Below, piece by piece: positions 3,112 to 32,615 of a stretch of DNA of 48,533 nucleotides. The notes beneath the pieces are model-generated. The model saw nothing but the letters and a program-made list of their open reading frames with translations, searched no databases and had not been told where the DNA came from. This DNA comes from a virus. Its lineage: Duplodnaviria > Caudoviricetes. A program made the translations under genes and the position numbers. The stretch lies in IMG/VR virus record IMGVR_UViG_3300036778_000214, positions 1-48,533 of that record; one strand, given 5' to 3'. Position 1 is the first letter of the stretch. Each line of letters begins with the position of its first letter.

Positions 3112-3933
3112 CTATTTGTGTAACGCAGCGGAGTTGATCCAGAGACATTCAGTGCGTGGTACGGCACCAGCCTGCCCACATGCTGCAACAGTCCGGGTCG
3201 TTTTCTTCCAGCTCGAGAGTCGGTCGTTGTATAACTCGCTGTCGTAGCCGCAAAGCACTACTTTTCCATCAAGTCCTTCCAGCGCATCGAGAAGGTCAAT
3301 ATGTTGAGCGTCAGTCATCTCAAAGCGGTACGCATTGTTTTTTGCGACGCTGACTCGTGTACCATGAACATAGGGAGGGTCAACAAAATGCAGTGTTGTT
3401 GGAGTATCGTGATCCTGCATGCATTTGATCGCGTCGCGATTCTCTACAAGCACACCAGAAAATCGGCTGGCCACAGCTGCGAGGTTATCGGGTTGGCGGG
3501 CCCAGATAGCTTGCGCGGTTGCACTATTCCTGCGGGTATCAAGCCTAAATCCAGTACATCCCTTTGTAGCTCCCGCAGAACCGAAGCCCATAGTTGCCCG
3601 AACAATCAGGCGACGAGCTAGTTCTACCGGGTTATCCGTCGGTTCATACGCACATCGGAATTCGTCGCGTGAATATGGCGTGAGGGCGCATGCATCAATA
3701 AGTCTTTGACTTTGAGATGGATCCCGCAGCACACGGAAAAGGTTCACCACGTCACCGTCGAGATCGTTATAAACCTCGGCCTCACTTTGTTCTTTTCTCA
3801 GGAGCACAGATGCCGCACCACCGAATGGTTCGACGTAGCAGCGGTGCGCCGGAAAGTGACTGATGATCCACGATGCCAGTCGGAATTTTCCGCCGTGGTA
3901 GCGGATTGCGGGGTGTTTGATTGTGTTCATCAC
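3112..3933 (-). CDS. dam: DNA adenine methyltransferase (D12/Dam class)
   Basis: YHGGKFRLA, YVEPFGGAASV, YNDLD and DPPY motifs. Confidence 0.93.
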   Translation of the reverse strand: MMNTIKHPAIRYHGGKFRLASWIISHFPAHRCYVEPFGGAASVLLRKEQSEAEVYNDLDGDVVNLFRVLRDPSQSQRLIDACALTPYSRDEFRCAYEPTDNPVELARRLIVRATMGFGSAGATKGCTGFRLDTRRNSATAQAIWARQPDNLAAVASRFSGVLVENRDAIKCMQDHDTPTTLHFVDPPYVHGTRVSVAKNNAYRFEMTDAQHIDLLDALEGLDGKVVLCGYDSELYNDRLSSWKKTTRTVAACGQAGAVPRTECLWINSAALHK

Positions 3934-14488: not shown

Positions 14489-16192
14489 TTACTTTTTCCA
14501 CTGCCGCTCTGCGGTCAGAATTACCACTGACACGCTTGTCCCTATAAATTCGCCTGATCTTGGTTCTGACCATGTGCAGTTCCACTCAGAAGAGAGAACG
14601 TCGTTTCCTCGCATGCTTGCGGGCAGAATAGCGACAATTCGCGATCCTGTTTTTGTCATTTCAGCTGCGGCATGCAGATGGGCTAAAGCGCGACCGTCAG
14701 CAAAAGGCGGGTTCATTATGATGCGATCAAAACAACCTCCGTGAGCAGCCCATTTCAGGAAATCAGCCTCATAGACCCGTAACCCTTTGCTTTCGAGCAC
14801 TTGGCATTTGAGAGGTGAAACTTCGACACAAATTGTCTGATCAACCGGCATAAACTCGGCGATACCTCCGTGTCCGGCGCTAGGCTCCAGGCACGTATGA
14901 CCCGGTTCGATACCGGCCATTTGCACGCAGTATTCAGCCAGTTCTGGTGGGGTGGGGTAGAACTGGTGAGATTTATCATCGGGCACGCAACCGGACGCGA
15001 TTATTTCCGCCAGCACCCGCGTTGGATCATATTCGAACTCCCACCATGACCAGTTTCCGCTATAGAACTTGGTGCCGCCAACCGAGGAGAGGATGCGCTC
15101 AGATTCCTTCCGAACATGAAGATCCGCTTCAGAACCGCAAAAAACCCGGTTGAAAGGGTTGGTGGTTTTTGGCTCTATCGGGTCACCACCGCGAAATCCC
15201 TGAGTTGGTTTGTACTTATCAATCTCCAGACGACACATGTCGTGTAGAACGGCAACAGGAAGAACATTTTGCATCAACACAAAATCTTTGATTTTTTTCT
15301 TCGATTTAGCGCGGAATTCAGGCGGGATAGCCATCGGGTACAGACTCGCCAAAATATTGTTGAGTCGCCAGGCAATGTCTGGATGCACCTCAAAGTGTGC
15401 GGTGCCTTTCAGGTAGGCTTTGATGCGCATCTCGCCGCCATCAATAGTCATCCATTCACCGGGATAATTACGTGCGGCCTGTAGCGCCTTGTTTGTCAGT
15501 TCGAATGATGGTTCCGGTCGCCCCATGAACTTAGCGATGACCTGTCGCAAATCGAGCACATGATTGACCTGCTTGTAGTTCGTCATTCCCCACTGGTCGT
15601 ACACATCGGACAGGATCATGTACTTGCTGAAACCACTAGGGCGGTTCGTTACATGTTCGCCAGACAATGCGCGGAAAATACCATCCACACGTTCACTGAA
15701 AAATTTGGCGCGAGAGTTGAGCATATCCATGAGCGTTGCTCTGACTGTTTCCTCTTCAAATTCAGGCAGAGGCTCCAGAGTCCATTCTTTCTGGATTTCT
15801 CCGGATTTCAGCTCAAAATGATTGAGTCGCGGGGCTTTGATGCCCTGGGGATTATCGATCTGTTCACGCCACTGTTCCCGACGCTTGGCTGGCATGACAT
15901 CAAGTACGTCGGTCAGCAGTAGCGCTCTCTGCCAGTATGTCGCATTCAGGTGACTTATCGCACCCTCCCGAGCGAATAGGTCGCTAATCGCAGGAAAACT
16001 CCTGAAACGTTCGCCACGGCGGTTTCCACTCATGAAGTGTTCTATTGCCACTTGAGCGTCGTTATCGCTAAGAATCGCCGCTAAGGACTCGATTTTTTGG
16101 CGTTCGAGTGTATACCTACCCATCAGGTTGTCCACCAGGTCGCTTGGTGCGGGTGCGAAAAATTCGCCGGTATTAAATACTTCGCTGGTCAT
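14489..16192 (-). CDS. DUF4942-domain class I SAM-dependent (N6-adenine) DNA methyltransferase
   Basis: C-terminal QFYPTP, LEPSAGHG and IIMNPPF motifs; long N-terminal DUF4942-like region; ATG at 16192 follows the O stop. Confidence 0.82.
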   Translation of the reverse strand: MTSEVFNTGEFFAPAPSDLVDNLMGRYTLERQKIESLAAILSDNDAQVAIEHFMSGNRRGERFRSFPAISDLFAREGAISHLNATYWQRALLLTDVLDVMPAKRREQWREQIDNPQGIKAPRLNHFELKSGEIQKEWTLEPLPEFEEETVRATLMDMLNSRAKFFSERVDGIFRALSGEHVTNRPSGFSKYMILSDVYDQWGMTNYKQVNHVLDLRQVIAKFMGRPEPSFELTNKALQAARNYPGEWMTIDGGEMRIKAYLKGTAHFEVHPDIAWRLNNILASLYPMAIPPEFRAKSKKKIKDFVLMQNVLPVAVLHDMCRLEIDKYKPTQGFRGGDPIEPKTTNPFNRVFCGSEADLHVRKESERILSSVGGTKFYSGNWSWWEFEYDPTRVLAEIIASGCVPDDKSHQFYPTPPELAEYCVQMAGIEPGHTCLEPSAGHGGIAEFMPVDQTICVEVSPLKCQVLESKGLRVYEADFLKWAAHGGCFDRIIMNPPFADGRALAHLHAAAEMTKTGSRIVAILPASMRGNDVLSSEWNCTWSEPRSGEFIGTSVSVVILTAERQWKK

Positions 16193-16196
16193 TTGG

Positions 16197-16943
16197 TCAT
16201 GTCTCGTTAAATTTCTTGATCGCCTGGTGCTCAAGGCTTTTGGCGAAAGTCATTTCCCACTGCTCCTGGAAGCGCAGAGCGTCTTCTGGCTGCCAGTAAT
16301 CGCGGAATTGGCGCAGTTGCGCCGGGGTGAATGGGATTTGGTTGTCGAGCAGATGCCCCCATTCGGTGGCTCGTTTCGAAAAGCCGGGAAGGGGATGCCA
16401 GCCTAGATACATTCGAAATTTCCCGGATGGTTCTAGGGCAAAGTTATCCACAGACTGTTCGCGCGCGTTTATGATCTCTCTCTCTGGTTTTAGATCTTTA
16501 TCTTTATCTTTATCTGTTGTGACATGGTGTGACGCATCGTGACATTCGTGTGACATTTCATTTTTATTTCTGCTCTCTTTTTCCCTTTCACGTTGTTCTC
16601 TTTTTCTTTGAGTAGCTGATTTTGCACCAGTTTTTTTATTTCCATGGTCCTCTTTTTTGGGCTGTCTGTGCTCCCATCCGGTGAGGTGCGTTCCGTCTAA
16701 AACACGCCCCTGCATAGCCGAAATTACCGCTTCAATGTCACGATTTGTCACGTCAAAATGTGACGCTAAATCTTCATTCGTGACATTGGCGTGACCGCGT
16801 GTGACATTTTGTGACGCGCTCACCAGCAGATGTAAGTAAACGGCCTGCACCAATGCAATTGGTTGCCCGGAAAATTTGGCGATCGTCCGCCATTTCGGAT
16901 CATTGGGCATGTCATGCCAAAGGCGCAGCCATGTGTTTGCCAT
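16197..16943 (-). CDS. Replication initiator (O-like) with C-terminal DnaT-like domain
   Basis: WLRLWHDMPNDPKWRTIA N-terminus, DKDKDKD linker, KFRMYLGWHP...FRDYW...QWEMTFAKSL C-terminus. Confidence 0.85.
   Translation of the reverse strand: MANTWLRLWHDMPNDPKWRTIAKFSGQPIALVQAVYLHLLVSASQNVTRGHANVTNEDLASHFDVTNRDIEAVISAMQGRVLDGTHLTGWEHRQPKKEDHGNKKTGAKSATQRKREQREREKESRNKNEMSHECHDASHHVTTDKDKDKDLKPEREIINAREQSVDNFALEPSGKFRMYLGWHPLPGFSKRATEWGHLLDNQIPFTPAQLRQFRDYWQPEDALRFQEQWEMTFAKSLEHQAIKKFNET
16519..16816. repeat. Clusters of GTGAC/GTCAC iterons inside the initiator gene (probable ori)
   Basis: Four GTGAC at about 16520-16555 and seven GTGAC/GTCAC at about 16737-16816, flanking an A/T-tract region. 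Confidence 0.65.
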
Positions 16944-22100: not shown

Positions 22101-22408
22101 GTAATCGATTTCCCGCAGAAGCAACGACAGCAGCAACCGTTGCGACTGATTTTAGTGGCGTAACAACAGCGGGTGCGAGCGTTGAAATTCTCGCATATGA
22201 CGAATCCGGCGTACTAACGTGCATTCAGAACCTGAGTGACAGCGATACGCTTTACCTCAGCATTACCGGCGCGGCCAGCGCTCAGCCAGGCAGTTTTCGC
22301 CTTTTGCCGAATGGTTATCTTGAGTTGCCGGGTATTAATGCTGTGACTGCATACGCAGACATTGCAGCGCCGTTTACTGCTGTGAGGTTCCGCTATGCCG
22401 ATGTTTAA
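22097..22408 (+). CDS. Small beta-rich hypothetical protein
   Basis: 103 aa, ATGA-coupled to the upstream gene; IQNLSDSDTLYLS..G.....GSFRLLPNG pattern. Confidence 0.7.
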   Translation: MSNRFPAEATTAATVATDFSGVTTAGASVEILAYDESGVLTCIQNLSDSDTLYLSITGAASAQPGSFRLLPNGYLELPGINAVTAYADIAAPFTAVRFRYADV

Positions 22409-23714
22409 CCCCGCACAGGAAAAAATCTCACGCCTGTTCACGTCGGTGCTTACTGCGCCGTTGCCGGTCATGGACAATGCGCCAGTCACCACGCTGGCGC
22501 GTGGCGTTGGTCTGTCGTCCGCGAGTATCGTCTCCGGTGGTGCCGGGTATAGCGCCGGGGATAATCTGACGCCAGCAGGTGGCGAGTCCGATTTCACCGG
22601 GCGTATTCGTGTGACCGGCGTCGATGAGAATGGCGTGATCACGTCTGCGGCGGTTCAGACTGCGGGCGTCTATTCAGTCACTCCTTCAAATCCGGTCGAA
22701 GTGACTGGTGGTGATGGTGCAGGGGCACAATTCAATCTCGGCTGGAATGCCAGTACAGCATCATCAATCTACAATCCGAAGCTGTTCAGCCGTGCTGATG
22801 ATTCAGCGTTCGAGTTTCTTGGATACTCGCCGAAAGACCCAACTCCCGGTTCAGGATATCGCGGCAATGGAGTGCAGAACGGCACGCAGGCCGTTATCGA
22901 ATTCTATTCTGATGCAGATTACCTCGAATACCGCTTTTCTGGCGGTAATTATCAGGGTGATGTTTACGTCAATGGGCAGAGAATTGCGGCTAAGGCCGTG
23001 AAAACGGACACATCTGGTGCGTCCTATGTGTACGCAATTGACTGGTCCGGAGCGTCAGAAATTCGACACTATCGGCTGTGCGGCATTAACACTGGCTTCG
23101 GAGGTGTGAACGTCGCGCAACAGTACAGCGTATGGGCACCAACAGGCGCACGTAAGCTACTGGCATGGCAAATGGGTGACAGCTATACAGTTGGCATCGG
23201 CGCAACACAAGGTTCCTTCAACATGTTCCGTGTGATGTGTGATTCGCTAGGAATTGAAGGGATAGCTGATGGCATCAGCGGAGCAGGATGGACATCTATT
23301 CAGGATGGGCGTGTGCCGCCGGAGCGCGTCGACATGAAACTAGGTAGTATCACCCGCGCGCCGGACCTCGTGTTTTTCTCAATGGGCTACAACGACGCCG
23401 CCGTGGGGCGAACTGAGCAGCTAAAAGAGAATATCAGGCTGTCGTACAAACGTGTGCGCGAGCTATGCCCGGCGGCAATCGTCATCAACATTGGCCCTGC
23501 AACACCGCTCGGTCGTGTCGGCATCATCACGACAATCAGGCAGGCAGAAATCGAAGTTTGCGAAGAGCTGAATATACCGTTCGTCGATGTCGATGATTGG
23601 GTCAGCGCCGCTAACAAATCAATGTACACAGGCGGCGACGGTGTTCACCCGACCGATGCCGGTCATTTCTATATCGGCGTGCGTATCGCTCAGGCTGTTT
23701 CCGAAATTATCTGA
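22395..23714 (+). CDS. SGNH/GDSL esterase with Gly-rich beta N-terminal region
   Basis: Blocks GDSY, GISGAG, GYND and DGVHP all intact. Confidence 0.88.
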   Translation: MPMFNPAQEKISRLFTSVLTAPLPVMDNAPVTTLARGVGLSSASIVSGGAGYSAGDNLTPAGGESDFTGRIRVTGVDENGVITSAAVQTAGVYSVTPSNPVEVTGGDGAGAQFNLGWNASTASSIYNPKLFSRADDSAFEFLGYSPKDPTPGSGYRGNGVQNGTQAVIEFYSDADYLEYRFSGGNYQGDVYVNGQRIAAKAVKTDTSGASYVYAIDWSGASEIRHYRLCGINTGFGGVNVAQQYSVWAPTGARKLLAWQMGDSYTVGIGATQGSFNMFRVMCDSLGIEGIADGISGAGWTSIQDGRVPPERVDMKLGSITRAPDLVFFSMGYNDAAVGRTEQLKENIRLSYKRVRELCPAAIVINIGPATPLGRVGIITTIRQAEIEVCEELNIPFVDVDDWVSAANKSMYTGGDGVHPTDAGHFYIGVRIAQAVSEII

Positions 23715-24182: not shown

Positions 24183-24686
24183 ATGAGTGTCTGGCCTGCG
24201 ATCATTGGTGCTCTGAGTGTTTTGAGTGGCGTTTTCATTACGAGTAAACTTGATGAAAAACGATGGGGAAAACAGATTTCTTACGAACGAGAGAAAGAAA
24301 AAAGTAAAGTTCTCAGGGAAAAAGGGGAAGAGCTTCACTCATTGATTTCGAGGTGGCAAAAATACATCGGCATTCACCATTTTGGTCAACTCTCCGTTTT
24401 AGAAGGAAAAATATCGGAGTCTCAACGCGATGAAATTGCAATTAAGAATCAATTAGAAGATGGTTTGCATGATCGGCTTGAAACTCTTCTTTTAGTTTAT
24501 TTTTCTGAGCTTGAGCCTTCATATTCTGGAGTTAAAAAGTCTTTAGAGAATGCCAATGGTTTTTATGGTCTAGCACAGAAGAAGACAATGAAACACATAG
24601 ACCTAATGTTCAACCAGACCACGGTGGACATTCAGAGAGAGTTGCAGAGTATTAATGAAGCTATACGAGAAAAATTAAAGGGTTGA
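24183..24686 (+). CDS. Moron: N-terminally membrane-anchored helical protein
   Basis: 167 aa, AT-rich, N-terminal TM helix, TAGAAT -10-like box upstream. Confidence 0.75.
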   Translation: MSVWPAIIGALSVLSGVFITSKLDEKRWGKQISYEREKEKSKVLREKGEELHSLISRWQKYIGIHHFGQLSVLEGKISESQRDEIAIKNQLEDGLHDRLETLLLVYFSELEPSYSGVKKSLENANGFYGLAQKKTMKHIDLMFNQTTVDIQRELQSINEAIREKLKG

Positions 24687-24740: not shown

Positions 24741-25109
24741 TCAGAACAAATCAAACTGCGGCGTGGCGTTGGGATCGTATTCTTCCACCGCGATACCCAA
24801 TTCCCGCCGGAACCAACGGGCAACAAGCTGACGGTGGCAGAACTCCCCCGGTAACTCATAACACAGTAGCACTGGCTCGACATTTCCCGTCAGCATGTGC
24901 AGCTCGTTCCATGTCCTTTCTGGGTTCAGTTTCGCCAGTATGTCGTGCTCATACAGTTCGATATAGCGGGAAGTTGAAACCGAGTTAAACCAGTTACCTG
25001 GTGCCAGTTTCCGAAACGTGTGATAACCCGCTGGGGTATTGCGCGGCGCGTACCGGGCGATGCTGATACGGCCTTCGCCTTTGTAGAGTGAAAAACATGA
25101 TGTTTTCAT
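24741..25109 (-). CDS. DUF488-family protein
   Basis: RISIAR..P...LAP...VLLCYE.PGEFCHRQLVARW signature. Confidence 0.78.
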   Translation of the reverse strand: MKTSCFSLYKGEGRISIARYAPRNTPAGYHTFRKLAPGNWFNSVSTSRYIELYEHDILAKLNPERTWNELHMLTGNVEPVLLCYELPGEFCHRQLVARWFRRELGIAVEEYDPNATPQFDLF

Positions 25110-25114
25110 CCGGA

Positions 25115-25309
25115 TTATGCCTCAACAATGAATGATTGCGGGAAACGGTAAACAAAACGACCACTTGGAAGTTGTTGGGTTCCCCAGAATGGTATGCCGC
25201 GTTGTTCACACGCACGTTGGGCATTTGCTTCAGTGGCATAGCTCGTTTTGCTTTGAAGTGAATAATCTTTGCCATCCATCCAACGTGTTGCTGCAAATTT
25301 GGTTTTCAT
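25115..25309 (-). CDS. Small hypothetical protein upstream of the DUF488 gene
   Basis: 64 aa, GAAGGT RBS. Confidence 0.55.
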   Translation of the reverse strand: MKTKFAATRWMDGKDYSLQSKTSYATEANAQRACEQRGIPFWGTQQLPSGRFVYRFPQSFIVEA

Positions 25310-25434
25310 ACTAAGCACCTTCCGTTAAGTGATTGTTTTGTCTATGTATATATCCTACCAAAATGGACCTCTAAGTACAGTTTTACGCACTGAAAAATCC
25401 TTTTAATTCATCGCGTTAGACCGAAAGGCACATT

Positions 25435-26712
25435 ATGTTCATAGGCTCAATACCTAAAAAACTCATCACCCAGATACTCGGCAACATCCACCTAAAACCC
25501 CGCGTTTACATCGGCTGTAGCGGCTCGTTCCGAACTGAGCACGCCATCAAAAATCTGATGCCCGATAAGCAGGTGTACGGCAATGACGTTTCGCTCCTGT
25601 CTTGCGCCGTCGGCAGTCTGCTGACAGACCAGAAAATCGATGTGGAATTTTCCGGCCGACTGGAACCTCTCAACCAACTGCGCGGTGATGCCGTGGCAAA
25701 CACCGCCGCAATTTGTCTCGCTATCACGCTGGCCCGGTTCAAGGGCAATAACCAGTATAGCCAGGCGCATTTTGCTCACATCATGCGGAATCTACCTGAG
25801 TTTTACCGCATTGAGCGGGAGAAGCTGCTGCGCTACACCGACGGATTCACGATTGACGGGTTCCATGCTGGTGACTTTCATCAACAAATTGACGCCGCCA
25901 GGGATAACGATGGCACGGTGATCATGTTCGCTCCGACGTATAAAGGCGGATACGAAAATATCTACAAATTTGTGAACACCAGCGTCAACTGGACCGCACC
26001 GGAGTACGGAATGTGGGATCCGGAAAACACTGAAGAGTTGATTCAGCGTCTACTGGCCGAACGACAGAATTTTGCCATCGTTTCTGACCGCCGCATGGAG
26101 AACGTGGAACCGCGCATCATGTTTGCCGGCAGCAACAAGCCGATTTATATGTATGCTAATGATGCCCGGTCATCACTTCGTCGCGAGCTGAAAAAGTCAC
26201 AGCCATTCAGATATCGCATAGTTGACTCCGATGCTATCACCGCAGAAAGCGTGGTCGAGATAACACTGCTCACATCGCAGCAACTCAATTTTCTGAAGAA
26301 TATCTACCTCGCGAAGGGCATCAATCACAAAGCAGGGATGATGAATTTCGCAGTGCTGGTGGACGGAATGCTGGTGGGCGCATTCATCTTCTCGATGGCG
26401 CAGTACGGTGACAAGATCCACAACATCTACATGCTGAGCGATTTTTCAACGTCACGACACCGCAAGCTGTCAAAGCTGGTGCCGATGCTGGCGACCAGTC
26501 GCAGCGTCATCGACCATGTGAACCGACAGTACATCATCGACATAAAGTCGGTCTACACCACTGCGTTCACGACGAAGCCGGTATCCATGAAATACCGCGG
26601 CATCTATCAGCTAGCGAAGCGCGGCGTGGGATTCCTGAATTATTCCTCGGTGGTACGCGAGCAGACGCCGCAGCAAATATTCGCAGAGTGGTATCGAAAA
26701 TATGCCAATTGA
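25435..26712 (+). CDS. Degenerate Dam-like methyltransferase fold fused to a GNAT/Mom-like C-terminal domain
   Basis: Alpha-class MTase motif order (MFIGS, VYIGCSGSF, YGNDVS, FHAGDF, VIMFAPTY where DPPY is expected); C-terminal FAVLVDGMLVGAF...YMLSDF...KLSKL...VYTTAF...SMKYRG. Confidence 0.6.
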   Translation: MFIGSIPKKLITQILGNIHLKPRVYIGCSGSFRTEHAIKNLMPDKQVYGNDVSLLSCAVGSLLTDQKIDVEFSGRLEPLNQLRGDAVANTAAICLAITLARFKGNNQYSQAHFAHIMRNLPEFYRIEREKLLRYTDGFTIDGFHAGDFHQQIDAARDNDGTVIMFAPTYKGGYENIYKFVNTSVNWTAPEYGMWDPENTEELIQRLLAERQNFAIVSDRRMENVEPRIMFAGSNKPIYMYANDARSSLRRELKKSQPFRYRIVDSDAITAESVVEITLLTSQQLNFLKNIYLAKGINHKAGMMNFAVLVDGMLVGAFIFSMAQYGDKIHNIYMLSDFSTSRHRKLSKLVPMLATSRSVIDHVNRQYIIDIKSVYTTAFTTKPVSMKYRGIYQLAKRGVGFLNYSSVVREQTPQQIFAEWYRKYAN

Positions 26713-27415
26713 AACAGTAATCCGGCGCGTCATTCTTACGGAACTGAAACTGCTAGAAAAAAATGCCCATTACATGGAACCTGGTGAATTTGACCTGCTG
26801 GTGGCGAACATCAAACGGGATGGCGTGATGACCAGCCTCCCGGTCGTTTACCGTGACATTGTGCTCTCAGGGAATCACAGGATGCAGGCGGCAATGAAAG
26901 CCGGGCTGGTGGAAATCGACGTCATCGACATTCTGACCGAACTGACACCCGACGAGCAGATGGCAATTCAGCTCAGCCACAACGCGATCAAGGGAAAGGA
27001 TGACAGCAACGTCCTCCGGGAACTGTACGCATCCATACAGAGCCTCGACCTGAAAATTTACACTGGCCTGACCGACGACGATTTCAAAATCACTGACGTT
27101 GAGGTACAGACACTCTCATTTGCTCAGCCTGCCTACGAAGACCTGGTGATCGCATTCCTTCCGGAAGAGCGGGCGCTGTTCATCGAGGCGCTGGAAAAAA
27201 TAGGGAAGAAGGCGAAAGACCGCCTGATTGTTGCCGGACGCGCCAGCGACTTCGATGCCGTTTTCAACGCCGTCATACAGACCAAAAGCAAGCTGAACAT
27301 CATCAACACAGCCGAAGCACTGAAGACACTCGCAGAACTGGCGCTTCAGAAGCTGGAGGAAACACCCGATGACGCAGCGGATCCTTTACGACAAAGCGAA
27401 AATAGCGAAGGTTGA
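26702..27415 (+). CDS. ParB/Srx N-terminal-domain protein
   Basis: LKLLEKNAHYM...LVANIKRDG...VLSGNHRMQAA...IQLSHN. Confidence 0.85.
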   Translation: MPIETVIRRVILTELKLLEKNAHYMEPGEFDLLVANIKRDGVMTSLPVVYRDIVLSGNHRMQAAMKAGLVEIDVIDILTELTPDEQMAIQLSHNAIKGKDDSNVLRELYASIQSLDLKIYTGLTDDDFKITDVEVQTLSFAQPAYEDLVIAFLPEERALFIEALEKIGKKAKDRLIVAGRASDFDAVFNAVIQTKSKLNIINTAEALKTLAELALQKLEETPDDAADPLRQSENSEG

Positions 27416-27650
27416 AGCACTTGCAGCTACACGGTTAAGTGCGCAGCAAATCGCGGATGTATTAGATATCGACTTTGACGAACTGATAAAGGATCAAGAC
27501 CAACTAATGGAGTTTTTTGGCTCAATTAGAAAAGGGCGGGCGAAAGGTGAAGCTGAATTGAGAACTGCATTGTTCAAACTGGCAAGAGAAGGTGATGCGT
27601 TTGCACTCCGGGAGCTATTGAAGGTGGAGAAGAACCAGGACATTAACTGA
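27369..27650 (+). CDS. Small HTH protein resembling minimal terminase small subunits
   Basis: KVEALAA.RLSAQQIADVLDI...IRKGRAKGEAELRTALFKLA.EGD. Confidence 0.6.
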   Translation: MTQRILYDKAKIAKVEALAATRLSAQQIADVLDIDFDELIKDQDQLMEFFGSIRKGRAKGEAELRTALFKLAREGDAFALRELLKVEKNQDIN

Positions 27651-28630
27651 TGAGTAAACCGGACGAGAGCGCACTCAAAAGAGATTACTGTGCCGGGGTG
27701 CTCTCGATCCAGAAGGTCGCTGACAAGCACTCTGTAGCCAAGTCCACGCTATCGGACATGGCTAAAAAATTTGGATGGCAACGTCCAAAAAAGCCGTCCA
27801 AAAATTCCGTCCAAAACACAAGCGGACGGTCGGACGGACGGATGGACGGACGAGAGATAAGCCGCCAAAAAAATTCTGAAAAAATACCGAGCACTTTATC
27901 AATCGCTGGCAGCACATTCGATCCCGCTGAATTCGGGATTTCCGAACAGCTTGGATTGTTTGCTGAGTACGTCGCGGCTGGAAAGAAATTGACTGAAGCT
28001 TATCGCCTCGCTGGCTACAAAGGCGAAGGAGGAACGGCCAATTCAAACGCCAGTAGGATGCTGAGAAATGCCAGGGTTTCACGCGCCGTCCGATGGCTTC
28101 GTGACCGACGACAGCAACGGCTTGCGTTGACTGAGACTGAAATTATCCATCAGCTTTCTTCTATTGCATCAATGGATCCTAATGACATCTCTCAATTACG
28201 ACGAGTGAATTGCCGATATTGCTGGGGGGATGACCATCATTATCAATGGCGCGACATTGATGAGCATCAGAAGGCTTGCAAGATCGCACTGAAGGACGAG
28301 AAGCCACCACCAGGGATGGCAGGGGGCATTGGTTTTGTTGAATCGGCTGTTCCGAATGAGGATTGCCCGAGGTGTGGTGGTGAAGGCACGATGCAAACTT
28401 TCTGGGCAGATACCACCATGCTAGATGGCCCGGCCCGCTGGGGGTATCTGGGAGTGAAAGAAACAATGAATGGGCTTGAGATTAAAATGGCAAGTCCTGA
28501 AGCCGCCCGCCGTGAACTGTTACGCCTGCTGCTGGCATCAAAGCAGAATACGCCCCCGCTTGATACCAGCATGAATATCGACGAGTTCAGGCAGGCCAGA
28601 AAGGAGATGCTCGACGATGATGACTGCTGA
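27650..28630 (+). CDS. terS: Terminase small subunit
   Basis: N-terminal HTH; TEAYRLAGY...NASRMLRN; CRYCWG / CPRCGGEG; directly upstream of terL. Confidence 0.85.
   Translation: MSKPDESALKRDYCAGVLSIQKVADKHSVAKSTLSDMAKKFGWQRPKKPSKNSVQNTSGRSDGRMDGREISRQKNSEKIPSTLSIAGSTFDPAEFGISEQLGLFAEYVAAGKKLTEAYRLAGYKGEGGTANSNASRMLRNARVSRAVRWLRDRRQQRLALTETEIIHQLSSIASMDPNDISQLRRVNCRYCWGDDHHYQWRDIDEHQKACKIALKDEKPPPGMAGGIGFVESAVPNEDCPRCGGEGTMQTFWADTTMLDGPARWGYLGVKETMNGLEIKMASPEAARRELLRLLLASKQNTPPLDTSMNIDEFRQARKEMLDDDDC
27782..27852. repeat. CGTCC/GGACG repeat cluster in terS (candidate pac region)
   Basis: Three cgtccaaaa followed by five ggacg in the opposite orientation. Confidence 0.45.
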
Positions 28631-30080
28631 GCAAAAATCTTTTGCTCGCAGGGTGGAGTGCGAAGAGGACCGGATGTACTTTGCCCGGTATTTCTTCAAG
28701 CAGCGGATGGGGAGCAAGATGCTTGTTGCCCCGCACCATCAGGTTATCAGCGACACCCTGCACCGAGTAATCGATGGTGAAATTACTCGTCTCGTAATCA
28801 ACGTCCCGCCGGGGTATACAAAAACAGAGCTGGCGACAATCAACCTGATCGCCCACGGCATCGCAATAAACAATCGCGCCCGATTTCTGCACCTGTCCTA
28901 TTCGCACAATCTGGCATTGCTGAACTCGTCCACCGCGCGCGGCATCATTAAATCACCAGACTTTCAGTCAATGTGGCCGATGGCGCTGCGTGAGGATGCC
29001 GATAGTAAAGCTATGTGGTGGACGCAATACGGTGGCGGCGTGTATGCATCATCCGCTGCCGGGCAGGTTACCGGGTTTCGTGCTGGTCATATGGAGCCGG
29101 GTTGGCAAGGTGCGTTGATTCTTGACGACCCGGTTAAGCCCGATGACGCATACAGTGAGACTGTTCGTGATGGTGTGAACAATCGCTTCAACGAGACAAT
29201 AAAATCCCGCCTGGCGCTTGAGTCGACGCCGATGATCGTCATCATGCAGCGTATCCACTATCACGATTTAAGTGGATATCTTCTGCGCGGTGGCTCTGGC
29301 GAAAAATGGCATCACCTGAATCTGCCGGTGATCATCGACAACAGTGTGCCGTATTCCGAGGTCTACCCGGAAAACACTCACTCAATTCCTGTTGATCATG
29401 GCCTGCCTGATGGCTGGCTATGGCCTCTGAAGCACAACGAATCACACCGAACAGCTCTGTTCTCACATCGGCGAACAGCAGAAGCGCAGTACATGCAGAA
29501 CCCTCGTCGTTTCAATGCAGAGGGAGCATTGTGGACGGAAGAGATGATCGCCGCCGCCCGCGCAATGAAAATTACGCAGGAGTTGTCCCGGACGGTCGTT
29601 GGTATAGACCCGCAAGGGACAAACAGTGAAGAGAGCGACGAAACAGGAATTGTGGTCGCAAGCGCATACGGAAGCGGAGACGAAAAGCAATTCACAGCCG
29701 ATGCTGACTACAGCGGCAAATACTCACCGAATGGCTGGGCTACACGTTCAATGGATGCATACAAAATCCATGATGCTGACGCGATCATTATCGAGACAAA
29801 CCAGGGCGGCGATATGGCAGAGGACACGCTGCGTAACGCCGGGTTCAAGGATCGCATCATTCGTGTACATGCAAGCAAAGGTAAATTTGCCAGAGCAGAA
29901 CCCATATCAGCGCTATACGCACAAGGACGCGTAGCGCATCGAGGCAGTCTCTATTATCTGGAAAATCAGATGATGGAGTATGTGCCGGTCACCGCCAAAA
30001 AATCACCTGATCGACTGGATGCAATGGTCTGGGCTATGTCCGAACTAAGCGGCCTGGTCAACGGCGCCTTCTACTTCTGA
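28617..30080 (+). CDS. terL: Terminase large subunit
   Basis: Walker A-like INVPPGYTKT, Walker B LILDDP, nuclease domain VGIDP...DRLDA. Confidence 0.95.
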   Translation: MMTAEQKSFARRVECEEDRMYFARYFFKQRMGSKMLVAPHHQVISDTLHRVIDGEITRLVINVPPGYTKTELATINLIAHGIAINNRARFLHLSYSHNLALLNSSTARGIIKSPDFQSMWPMALREDADSKAMWWTQYGGGVYASSAAGQVTGFRAGHMEPGWQGALILDDPVKPDDAYSETVRDGVNNRFNETIKSRLALESTPMIVIMQRIHYHDLSGYLLRGGSGEKWHHLNLPVIIDNSVPYSEVYPENTHSIPVDHGLPDGWLWPLKHNESHRTALFSHRRTAEAQYMQNPRRFNAEGALWTEEMIAAARAMKITQELSRTVVGIDPQGTNSEESDETGIVVASAYGSGDEKQFTADADYSGKYSPNGWATRSMDAYKIHDADAIIIETNQGGDMAEDTLRNAGFKDRIIRVHASKGKFARAEPISALYAQGRVAHRGSLYYLENQMMEYVPVTAKKSPDRLDAMVWAMSELSGLVNGAFYF

Positions 30081-32490: not shown

Positions 32491-32615
32491 TTGCGGTGTA
32501 ACTCAATCGGTAGAGTTGTGCATCAACGCGGCTCTGAAATTTCTGGTCGTGCTCGGTACGGCATGATGCTAATGCCTGACGAGAGTGTCGGTTCGAGTCC
32601 GGCAGCCGCAACCCA
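32491..32615 (+). ncRNA. tRNA-like RNA (125 nt) with non-canonical enlarged core
   Basis: Acceptor ttgcggt/gccgcaa + C-CCA; D arm actc-aatcggta-gagt; T arm gtcgg-ttcgagt-ccggc; about 70 nt between the D and T arms. Confidence 0.7.

Follow-up and report, generated by a model that had tools for sequence, protein, structure and literature searches.

Phage Mu Mom, as described in PMC13219725, moves glycine from Gly-tRNA(Gly), of any isoacceptor, onto the N6 of adenine, and its activity requires R111, S124 and R151, with D149 also important. The same source calls Mom a new category, that of a DNA-modifying enzyme using a charged tRNA, and states that many GNATs take aminoacyl-tRNA for acceptors other than DNA (PMC13219725). 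ParB-like partners are known from another class of phage DNA modification: ParB activates the phage T-dioxygenases, with no stable complex seen in the work described there (PMC13229309).

The enzyme considered here is encoded in a 48.5-kb provirus record (hereafter the window), which carries integrase, recombination, replication, lysis, head and tail genes. It belongs both to the Pfam family PF22555 (DAM-like-phage1) and to PF22559 (GNAT-phage-like), which stand with PF22751 (DUF488-N3a), and no tested function was found for these three families. Their likely source is Burroughs and Aravind 2023, a probably computational description of these domain families. Our literature search found no description of the cassette, of its activity or of a link with tRNA; the gene neighbourhood may be covered by Burroughs and Aravind 2023 and by Iyer et al. 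2013, and passages of PMC5512222, PMC12704722 and PMC12839542 deal with other systems. The domain pair already has Pfam families, and the tRNA link is the addition beyond sequence reading. Here we establish the predicted folds of the two domains, their conservation and gene linkage, and, for half of the lineages, the occurrence of adjoining RNAs of tRNA-Gly identity.

Gene organization of the cassette

Enterobacteria are the source of the enzyme's closest named relatives, and the cassette is flanked by the lysis region on one side and terS-terL on the other (Table 1). Every open reading frame named in the first-pass annotation was located as given, together with the overlaps and the divergent DUF488 gene, and the motifs MFIGS, YIGCSGSF, YGNDVS, FHAGDF and FAPTY were all found in the enzyme ORF and are conserved. 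The two other adenine-type methylases attributed to the phage are likewise present with intact motifs. The DUF488 gene has its best match in the N3a subclade (E 1.6e-5), slightly short of the cut-off.

Table 1 Positions of cassette genes, domains and related features (window coordinates unless a homologue is named)
Feature	Position	Strand	Remarks
Enzyme, 425 aa	25435-26712	+	ORF; PF22555 + PF22559
Dam-like domain (PF22555), residues 1-245	25435..26169	+	SAM-binding motifs retained; conserved F-[AP]-P-[TF]-Y-x-G-x-Y-E in place of DPPY
GNAT-like domain (PF22559), residues about 261-425	26215..26712	+	Conserved YxxSDF, SKL, TTAF, SMKYRG
ParB/Srx-fold partner (SGNHR box), phrog_7405	26702-27415	+	11-bp overlap with enzyme ORF
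HTH gene	27369-27650	+	47-bp overlap with ParB-like gene
terS	27650-28630	+	TGATG junction with HTH gene; downstream context
terL	28617-30080	+	Downstream context
DUF488, frequent accessory gene	24741-25109	-	Divergent; LLCYE...CHR (C-x-E...C-H-R)
Small ORF	25115-25318	-	67 aa from GTG, 64 aa from internal ATG
Other adenine-type methylase	3112-3933	-	Intact DPPY
Other adenine-type methylase	14489-16234	-	Intact NPPF
Intein-like inserts in Dam-like motif IV	P0150, P0153, P0185, P0254, L070:4657-6804		

Two genes that had been counted as cassette members were rejected as core parts. The HTH gene exists and overlaps the ParB-like gene, but is present in just 21 of 155 loci; its top score is to a terminase-small-subunit family (phrog_309, E 3.9e-14), and it is lineage-restricted and probably belongs to the packaging side, not to the modification core. 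The 64-aa gene exists and is divergent, but was found in one of the 155 loci, the window itself, and shows no conservation with the cassette.

Two further genes lie on the lysis side. One (24183-24686, + strand) encodes 167 aa with an N-terminal hydrophobic stretch, has a GC content of 38.5%, converges on the DUF488 gene and has a moron-like look; Pfam and PHROG profile searches found no family match for it. The other (22395-23714, + strand), situated between the lysis genes and the cassette, encodes 439 aa with a GDSL/SGNH esterase domain (phrog_9703, 'head decoration').

A Dam-like domain with an altered catalytic motif

PF22555 matches residues 2-261 of the enzyme (E 4.6e-48, 164.3 bits against a gathering cut-off of 27). 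An AlphaFold2 model built from 76 sequences (mean pLDDT 87, pTM 0.56) was structurally aligned against 48,161 solved chains. In this predicted model, residues 3-245 have the fold of the Dam group, with Mcbe1 as top match (Z 13.8, rmsd 4.0, 190 aligned), followed by E. coli Dam (Z 12.6) and T4 Dam (Z 11.9), which together with the retained motif order upholds the earlier assignment to the Dam class. In a structure atlas the Dam-like part scores 0.94 to a cluster of which 12% is PF02086. Because the top fold match, Mcbe1, is an N4-cytosine methylase, cytosine is a possible target base. PDB sequence searches and an NCBIfam search with the enzyme gave no match, and homologues are annotated in UniRef/NCBI as 'putative antirestriction adenine methyltransferase'.

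In amino-methyltransferases, the D, N or S of the catalytic motif activates the exocyclic amine. The (D/N/S)PP(Y/F/W) motif is absent from the window's enzyme, which reads FAPT; of 112 diverse homologues, 97 have an aromatic residue (F, Y or W) at the catalytic position and seven have S or D, so that 105 lack D, N or S there. The surrounding residues P167, Y169, G172, Y173 and E174 are present in 120/120 homologues, and the SAM-binding residues C28/S29/G30/F32, D51 and D147 are near-invariant.

The domain had been called 'degenerate', a wording not borne out by the substitution rates: against five relatives, the Dam-like part has a dN/dS of 0.04-0.08 and the GNAT part one of 0.05-0.07, with dS close to saturation, indicating strong purifying selection, and a decaying methylase was rejected on these values. 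Inteins tend to sit in essential motifs, and an intein-like insert (C...HN-S/T) lies inside the altered motif IV in four of the nine long homologues examined, as read from sequence with weak Pfam support. As far as sequences can tell, the Dam-like domain is therefore altered, not decaying. P0254, one of the proteins with such an insert, additionally has an HNH domain; a further homologue, P0253, carries a C-terminal DUF559-type nuclease.

A GNAT-like domain resembling Mom outside the Mom family

PF22559 matches residues 272-423 (E 2.3e-41, 141.8 bits against a cut-off of 27), and residues 269-409 have the GNAT fold, with Mom (8bv8) being the first GNAT among the 48,161 chains. The alignment of Mom to the predicted model (Z 11.0, rmsd 3.0) comprises 134 residues of Mom's 202, and a generic acetyltransferase is tied with it at 10.7; the proposal of a GNAT/Mom-like C-terminal domain is thus supported in its fold and in its closest GNAT, although Mom's lead is small enough to count as a tie. 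The first match of the C-terminal part in the structure atlas, a cluster of which 21% is Mom (score 0.87), serves as a lead only.

When motifs were aligned by eye on the GNAT strands using conservation tables, S124 of Mom was kept (S346) and Y59 and Y159 had counterparts, an invariant Asp (D336) stood at the position of R111, and D149/R151 were not kept. The HTH-like insertion of Mom (residues 175-209) is absent, and the model shows a short beta-hairpin after SMKYRG. The Mom profile PF25680 did not match the enzyme at E up to 1, and hhalign of the GNAT profile against 121 Mom sequences gave no significant result (probability 1.1%, P 0.048). Because the profile comparison is not significant and R111 and D149/R151 of Mom are apparently replaced, the enzyme is, by sequence, not a member of the Mom family, and a Mom-like working of its GNAT domain rests on evidence other than family membership. 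In a separate observation, positions 26221-26625 of the window, within the GNAT domain, match the C-terminal part of phrog_2443 ('amidoligase enzyme', E 7e-10), which hints at another fusion context.

Distribution and gene neighbourhood

The enzyme family comprises 1,369 clusters at 50% identity (E up to 0.001) and ranges from enterobacterial to actinobacterial phages; 17 cultured-phage records carry the gene. We collected 432 cassette loci, including the window and some duplicates, by taking the top-scoring part of the several hundred matches that each scan gave. Clustering at 70% identity yielded 128 groups, and neighbouring genes were counted on representatives having enough flank. The predicted linkage to ParB is confirmed by this survey, since a ParB gene directly follows the enzyme gene in 116 of 124 cluster representatives, and one protein (P0144) is an enzyme-ParB triple fusion. 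The ParB-like protein matches ParB PHROGs, with Pfam ParB_N under the cut-off, and G57 and R60 of its GxxR box are present in 61/61 homologues.

Linkage to DUF488 (47 of 68 representatives) and to the terminase proved common, but not obligatory. At least 66 of 102 representatives have a terminase large subunit, of one of several unrelated types, no more than 4 kb away; the count is a lower bound in that the profiles missed some, such as that of L148. The cultured phages Argie, Taptic and Clawz have the enzyme and ParB genes, and Argie and Clawz also the RNA described below; the cassette stands away from the terminase in Argie and Clawz, and beside it in FP_Brigit. A coupling of the cassette to the packaging motor, as first proposed, is accordingly too strong a statement, and because terminase linkage is incomplete, and absent in these two phages, late co-expression explains the position of the cassette.

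tRNA-Gly-like RNAs beside the cassette

Within 1 kb of the cassette, ARAGORN called tRNA-Gly in 18 clusters, tRNA-Ser in one, which has a Gly-type acceptor stem, and tRNA-Lys in one, compared with Gly in 4 of 17 farther away (70% clusters); the Gly enrichment is significant (Fisher p 2.9e-4, 55% clusters). A lowered ARAGORN threshold produced noise, and a hand-written acceptor-stem scan, which recovered missed RNAs together with chance hits, was used solely to seed a covariance model. This model, R1, was built from 37 RNAs selected for Gly features. Elements of tRNA-Gly identity are G1-C72, C2-G71, U73 and C35-C36, and these and the cloverleaf pairing are present in the 37 sequences, which had been selected for them; in the same set, 95% of cells are paired and two-sided changes occur in 17 of 21 pairs.

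Applied to the 128 representatives, R1 found a Gly-identity RNA in 64. Of these RNAs, 59 have a gene for the enzyme, ParB or DUF488 no more than 1 kb away, and 62 lie on the enzyme's strand. The 96 held-out clusters, outside the training set, gave 35 hits, 24 of which pass a strict NCC anticodon-loop check and 11 fail; the hit in L299 is probably due to chance. Half of the RNAs (32/64) are at most 70 nt long with a reduced D-arm, CCA is encoded in 51/64, and a standard T-loop is found in 30/64. The 52 parsed anticodons are TCC (25), ACC (21), CCC (3) and GCC (3). Because bacterial translation is scarcely known to use tRNA-Gly with an ACC anticodon, a function as carriers away from the ribosome is suggested, and the cassette RNAs are probably dedicated, non-translating carriers. 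Their co-occurrence with DUF488 is not significant (30/46 vs 9/21, p 0.11).

As a control, phage D12-Dam loci, which come from a different phage region, contained a Gly RNA in one of 42 (of 53 fetched), within an ordinary tRNA cluster; among the Mom loci that served as positive control, 6 of 43 (of 80 fetched) had a Gly-type RNA no farther than about 300 bp from mom, five of the six with an NCC loop and two near-identical. Control loci were not dereplicated. The tRNA-Gly-like RNAs adjoining mom homologues (L575, L602, L595, L576, L608 and L557) were mostly missed by ARAGORN.

Neither the window nor seven close relatives has a dedicated Gly-identity RNA by its cassette; one close relative, L006, has an ordinary Met-Gly-Arg tRNA cluster 5.5 kb away. 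Gordonia phage Clawz carries an unannotated tRNA-Gly-like gene upstream of gp29 (L156:6823-6896), 104 bp before the enzyme gene. The homologue in Faecalibacterium phage FP_Brigit (L157) is divergent, with NPPTY and with changes in the GNAT motifs; genes for tRNA-Lys and a SAM synthetase precede it, and it possibly represents a lysine-donor or still-methylating subfamily. The window itself holds a tRNA-like element immediately downstream of the head-morphogenesis gene (32492-32615, + strand), which scores 29.6 bits against the Rfam tRNA model (gathering threshold 29). Its D and T arms are normal, its anticodon/variable region spans about 65 nt, and a terminator-like hairpin follows it; the element is not of Gly identity, has a folding z of -1.07 and gave no match in the phage collection.

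Discussion

Non-methyl modification, already favoured in the first-pass annotation, is the likeliest function of the cassette, and the tRNA-Gly link in 64 of 128 lineages adds support to it. We consider it probable that the cassette carries out a tRNA-dependent glycyl modification of phage DNA, likely at adenine N6, giving a bulky mark of the Mom type against host nucleases. Donor, acceptor, product and the role of ParB are all inferred. Gly-tRNA would be the donor, from which the GNAT domain would transfer glycine to a base of replicated phage DNA, probably the N6 of adenine, in a late, post-replicative step. Many lineages would supply their own carrier RNA, and the enterobacterial lineage of the window would, like Mu, draw on the tRNA-Gly of its host. 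The Dam-like domain, devoid of the amine-activating D/N/S, would find the site and flip the base, replacing the HTH-like insertion of Mom, and probably still binds SAM. DUF488 may be an accessory phosphate-end enzyme, and the bulky mark would stop host nucleases. By analogy with the phage T-dioxygenases described in PMC13229309, ParB may be an activator or a DNA clamp.

The main alternative is a fuller role for SAM, though we think it rather doubtful: the GNAT domain would glycylate the base and the Dam-like domain would then alkylate, for example methylate, the glycyl amine, creating an undescribed base. The near-invariance of the SAM motifs, the inteins within the altered motif in four proteins and a SAM synthetase near the cassette in 2/432 loci agree with such a second step, for which, as an aliphatic amine, the glycyl group would not require the Asp of DPPY; a base-flipping scaffold would, on the other hand, keep many of the same residues, and SAM synthetase neighbours are rare. 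A complete scheme, in which the phage's own stripped-down glycine carrier (short, devoid of a normal D-arm, often ACC) feeds a Mom-like glycylation and the Dam fold adds a SAM-derived second group to give a new base under ParB control, is similarly tentative. That the enzyme is a plain though unusual methyltransferase making m6A or m4C, with an acetyltransferase as accessory and the tRNAs as passengers, is the least probable reading: the complete Dam fold with its SAM motifs, the S or D in seven homologues and the database label would fit, but the predominance of aromatic residues at the catalytic position speaks against it, it leaves Gly-specific RNAs with diverse anticodons unexplained, and the phage already has two intact methylases.

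It is unlikely that Gly-tRNA is used for an acceptor other than DNA, be it a protein of the virion or the host, a tRNA or some small molecule, in the manner of FemX or L/F-transferase-type enzymes. Many GNATs do place aminoacyl groups from tRNA on such targets (PMC13219725), and Mom's catalytic Arg/Asp appear replaced, but the fusion to a Dam-type DNA-binding fold, the ParB partner and the late position near the terminase all indicate DNA. Action at the packaging motor itself, by modifying DNA during packaging or marking the pac site, would account for the overlapping genes running through terS-terL in the window and for the frequent terminase neighbours; we regard it as distinctly improbable, as the cassette is apart from the terminase in two cultured phages, the swapping of terminase families speaks against a specific protein contact, and late co-expression is enough.

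If glycyl modification of DNA is correct, the family would be a second route of tRNA-dependent DNA modification, with an architecture unlike that of Mom, and those phage tRNA-like genes that standard tRNA finders mostly miss would gain a function as a class. The cassette is testable in the cultured phages Argie, Taptic and Clawz.

The cassette combines features of several known systems. Dam/D12 amino-methyltransferases (E. coli Dam, T4 Dam, DpnM, Mcbe1) have fold and motif order in common with the enzyme; they keep the catalytic D/N/S, whereas most enzyme homologues have an aromatic residue there. Staphylococcal Fem transferases use a non-proteinogenic tRNA-Gly that, like the cassette RNAs, keeps Gly identity with relaxed translation features; the cassette RNAs differ in being phage-encoded, often short and devoid of a normal D-arm, and in having a predicted DNA acceptor. 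With the ParB-dependent phage T-dioxygenases, as described in PMC13229309, the cassette shares a DNA-modifying enzyme with a ParB-like partner, often near the terminase, although their catalytic enzyme and chemistry are unrelated. Mu Mom (PF25680, tRNA-dependent N6-carbamoylmethyl-adenine) shares with the enzyme the GNAT fold, the late position of its gene and, by the motif alignment made by eye, counterparts of S124, Y59 and Y159, and some mom genes too adjoin tRNA-Gly-like RNAs; in contrast to Mom, the cassette enzyme has a fused Dam-like domain, apparently has other residues at R111 and D149/R151, lacks both the HTH-like insertion and a PF25680 match, and comes with a near-obligatory ParB and, in half of the lineages, a carrier RNA.
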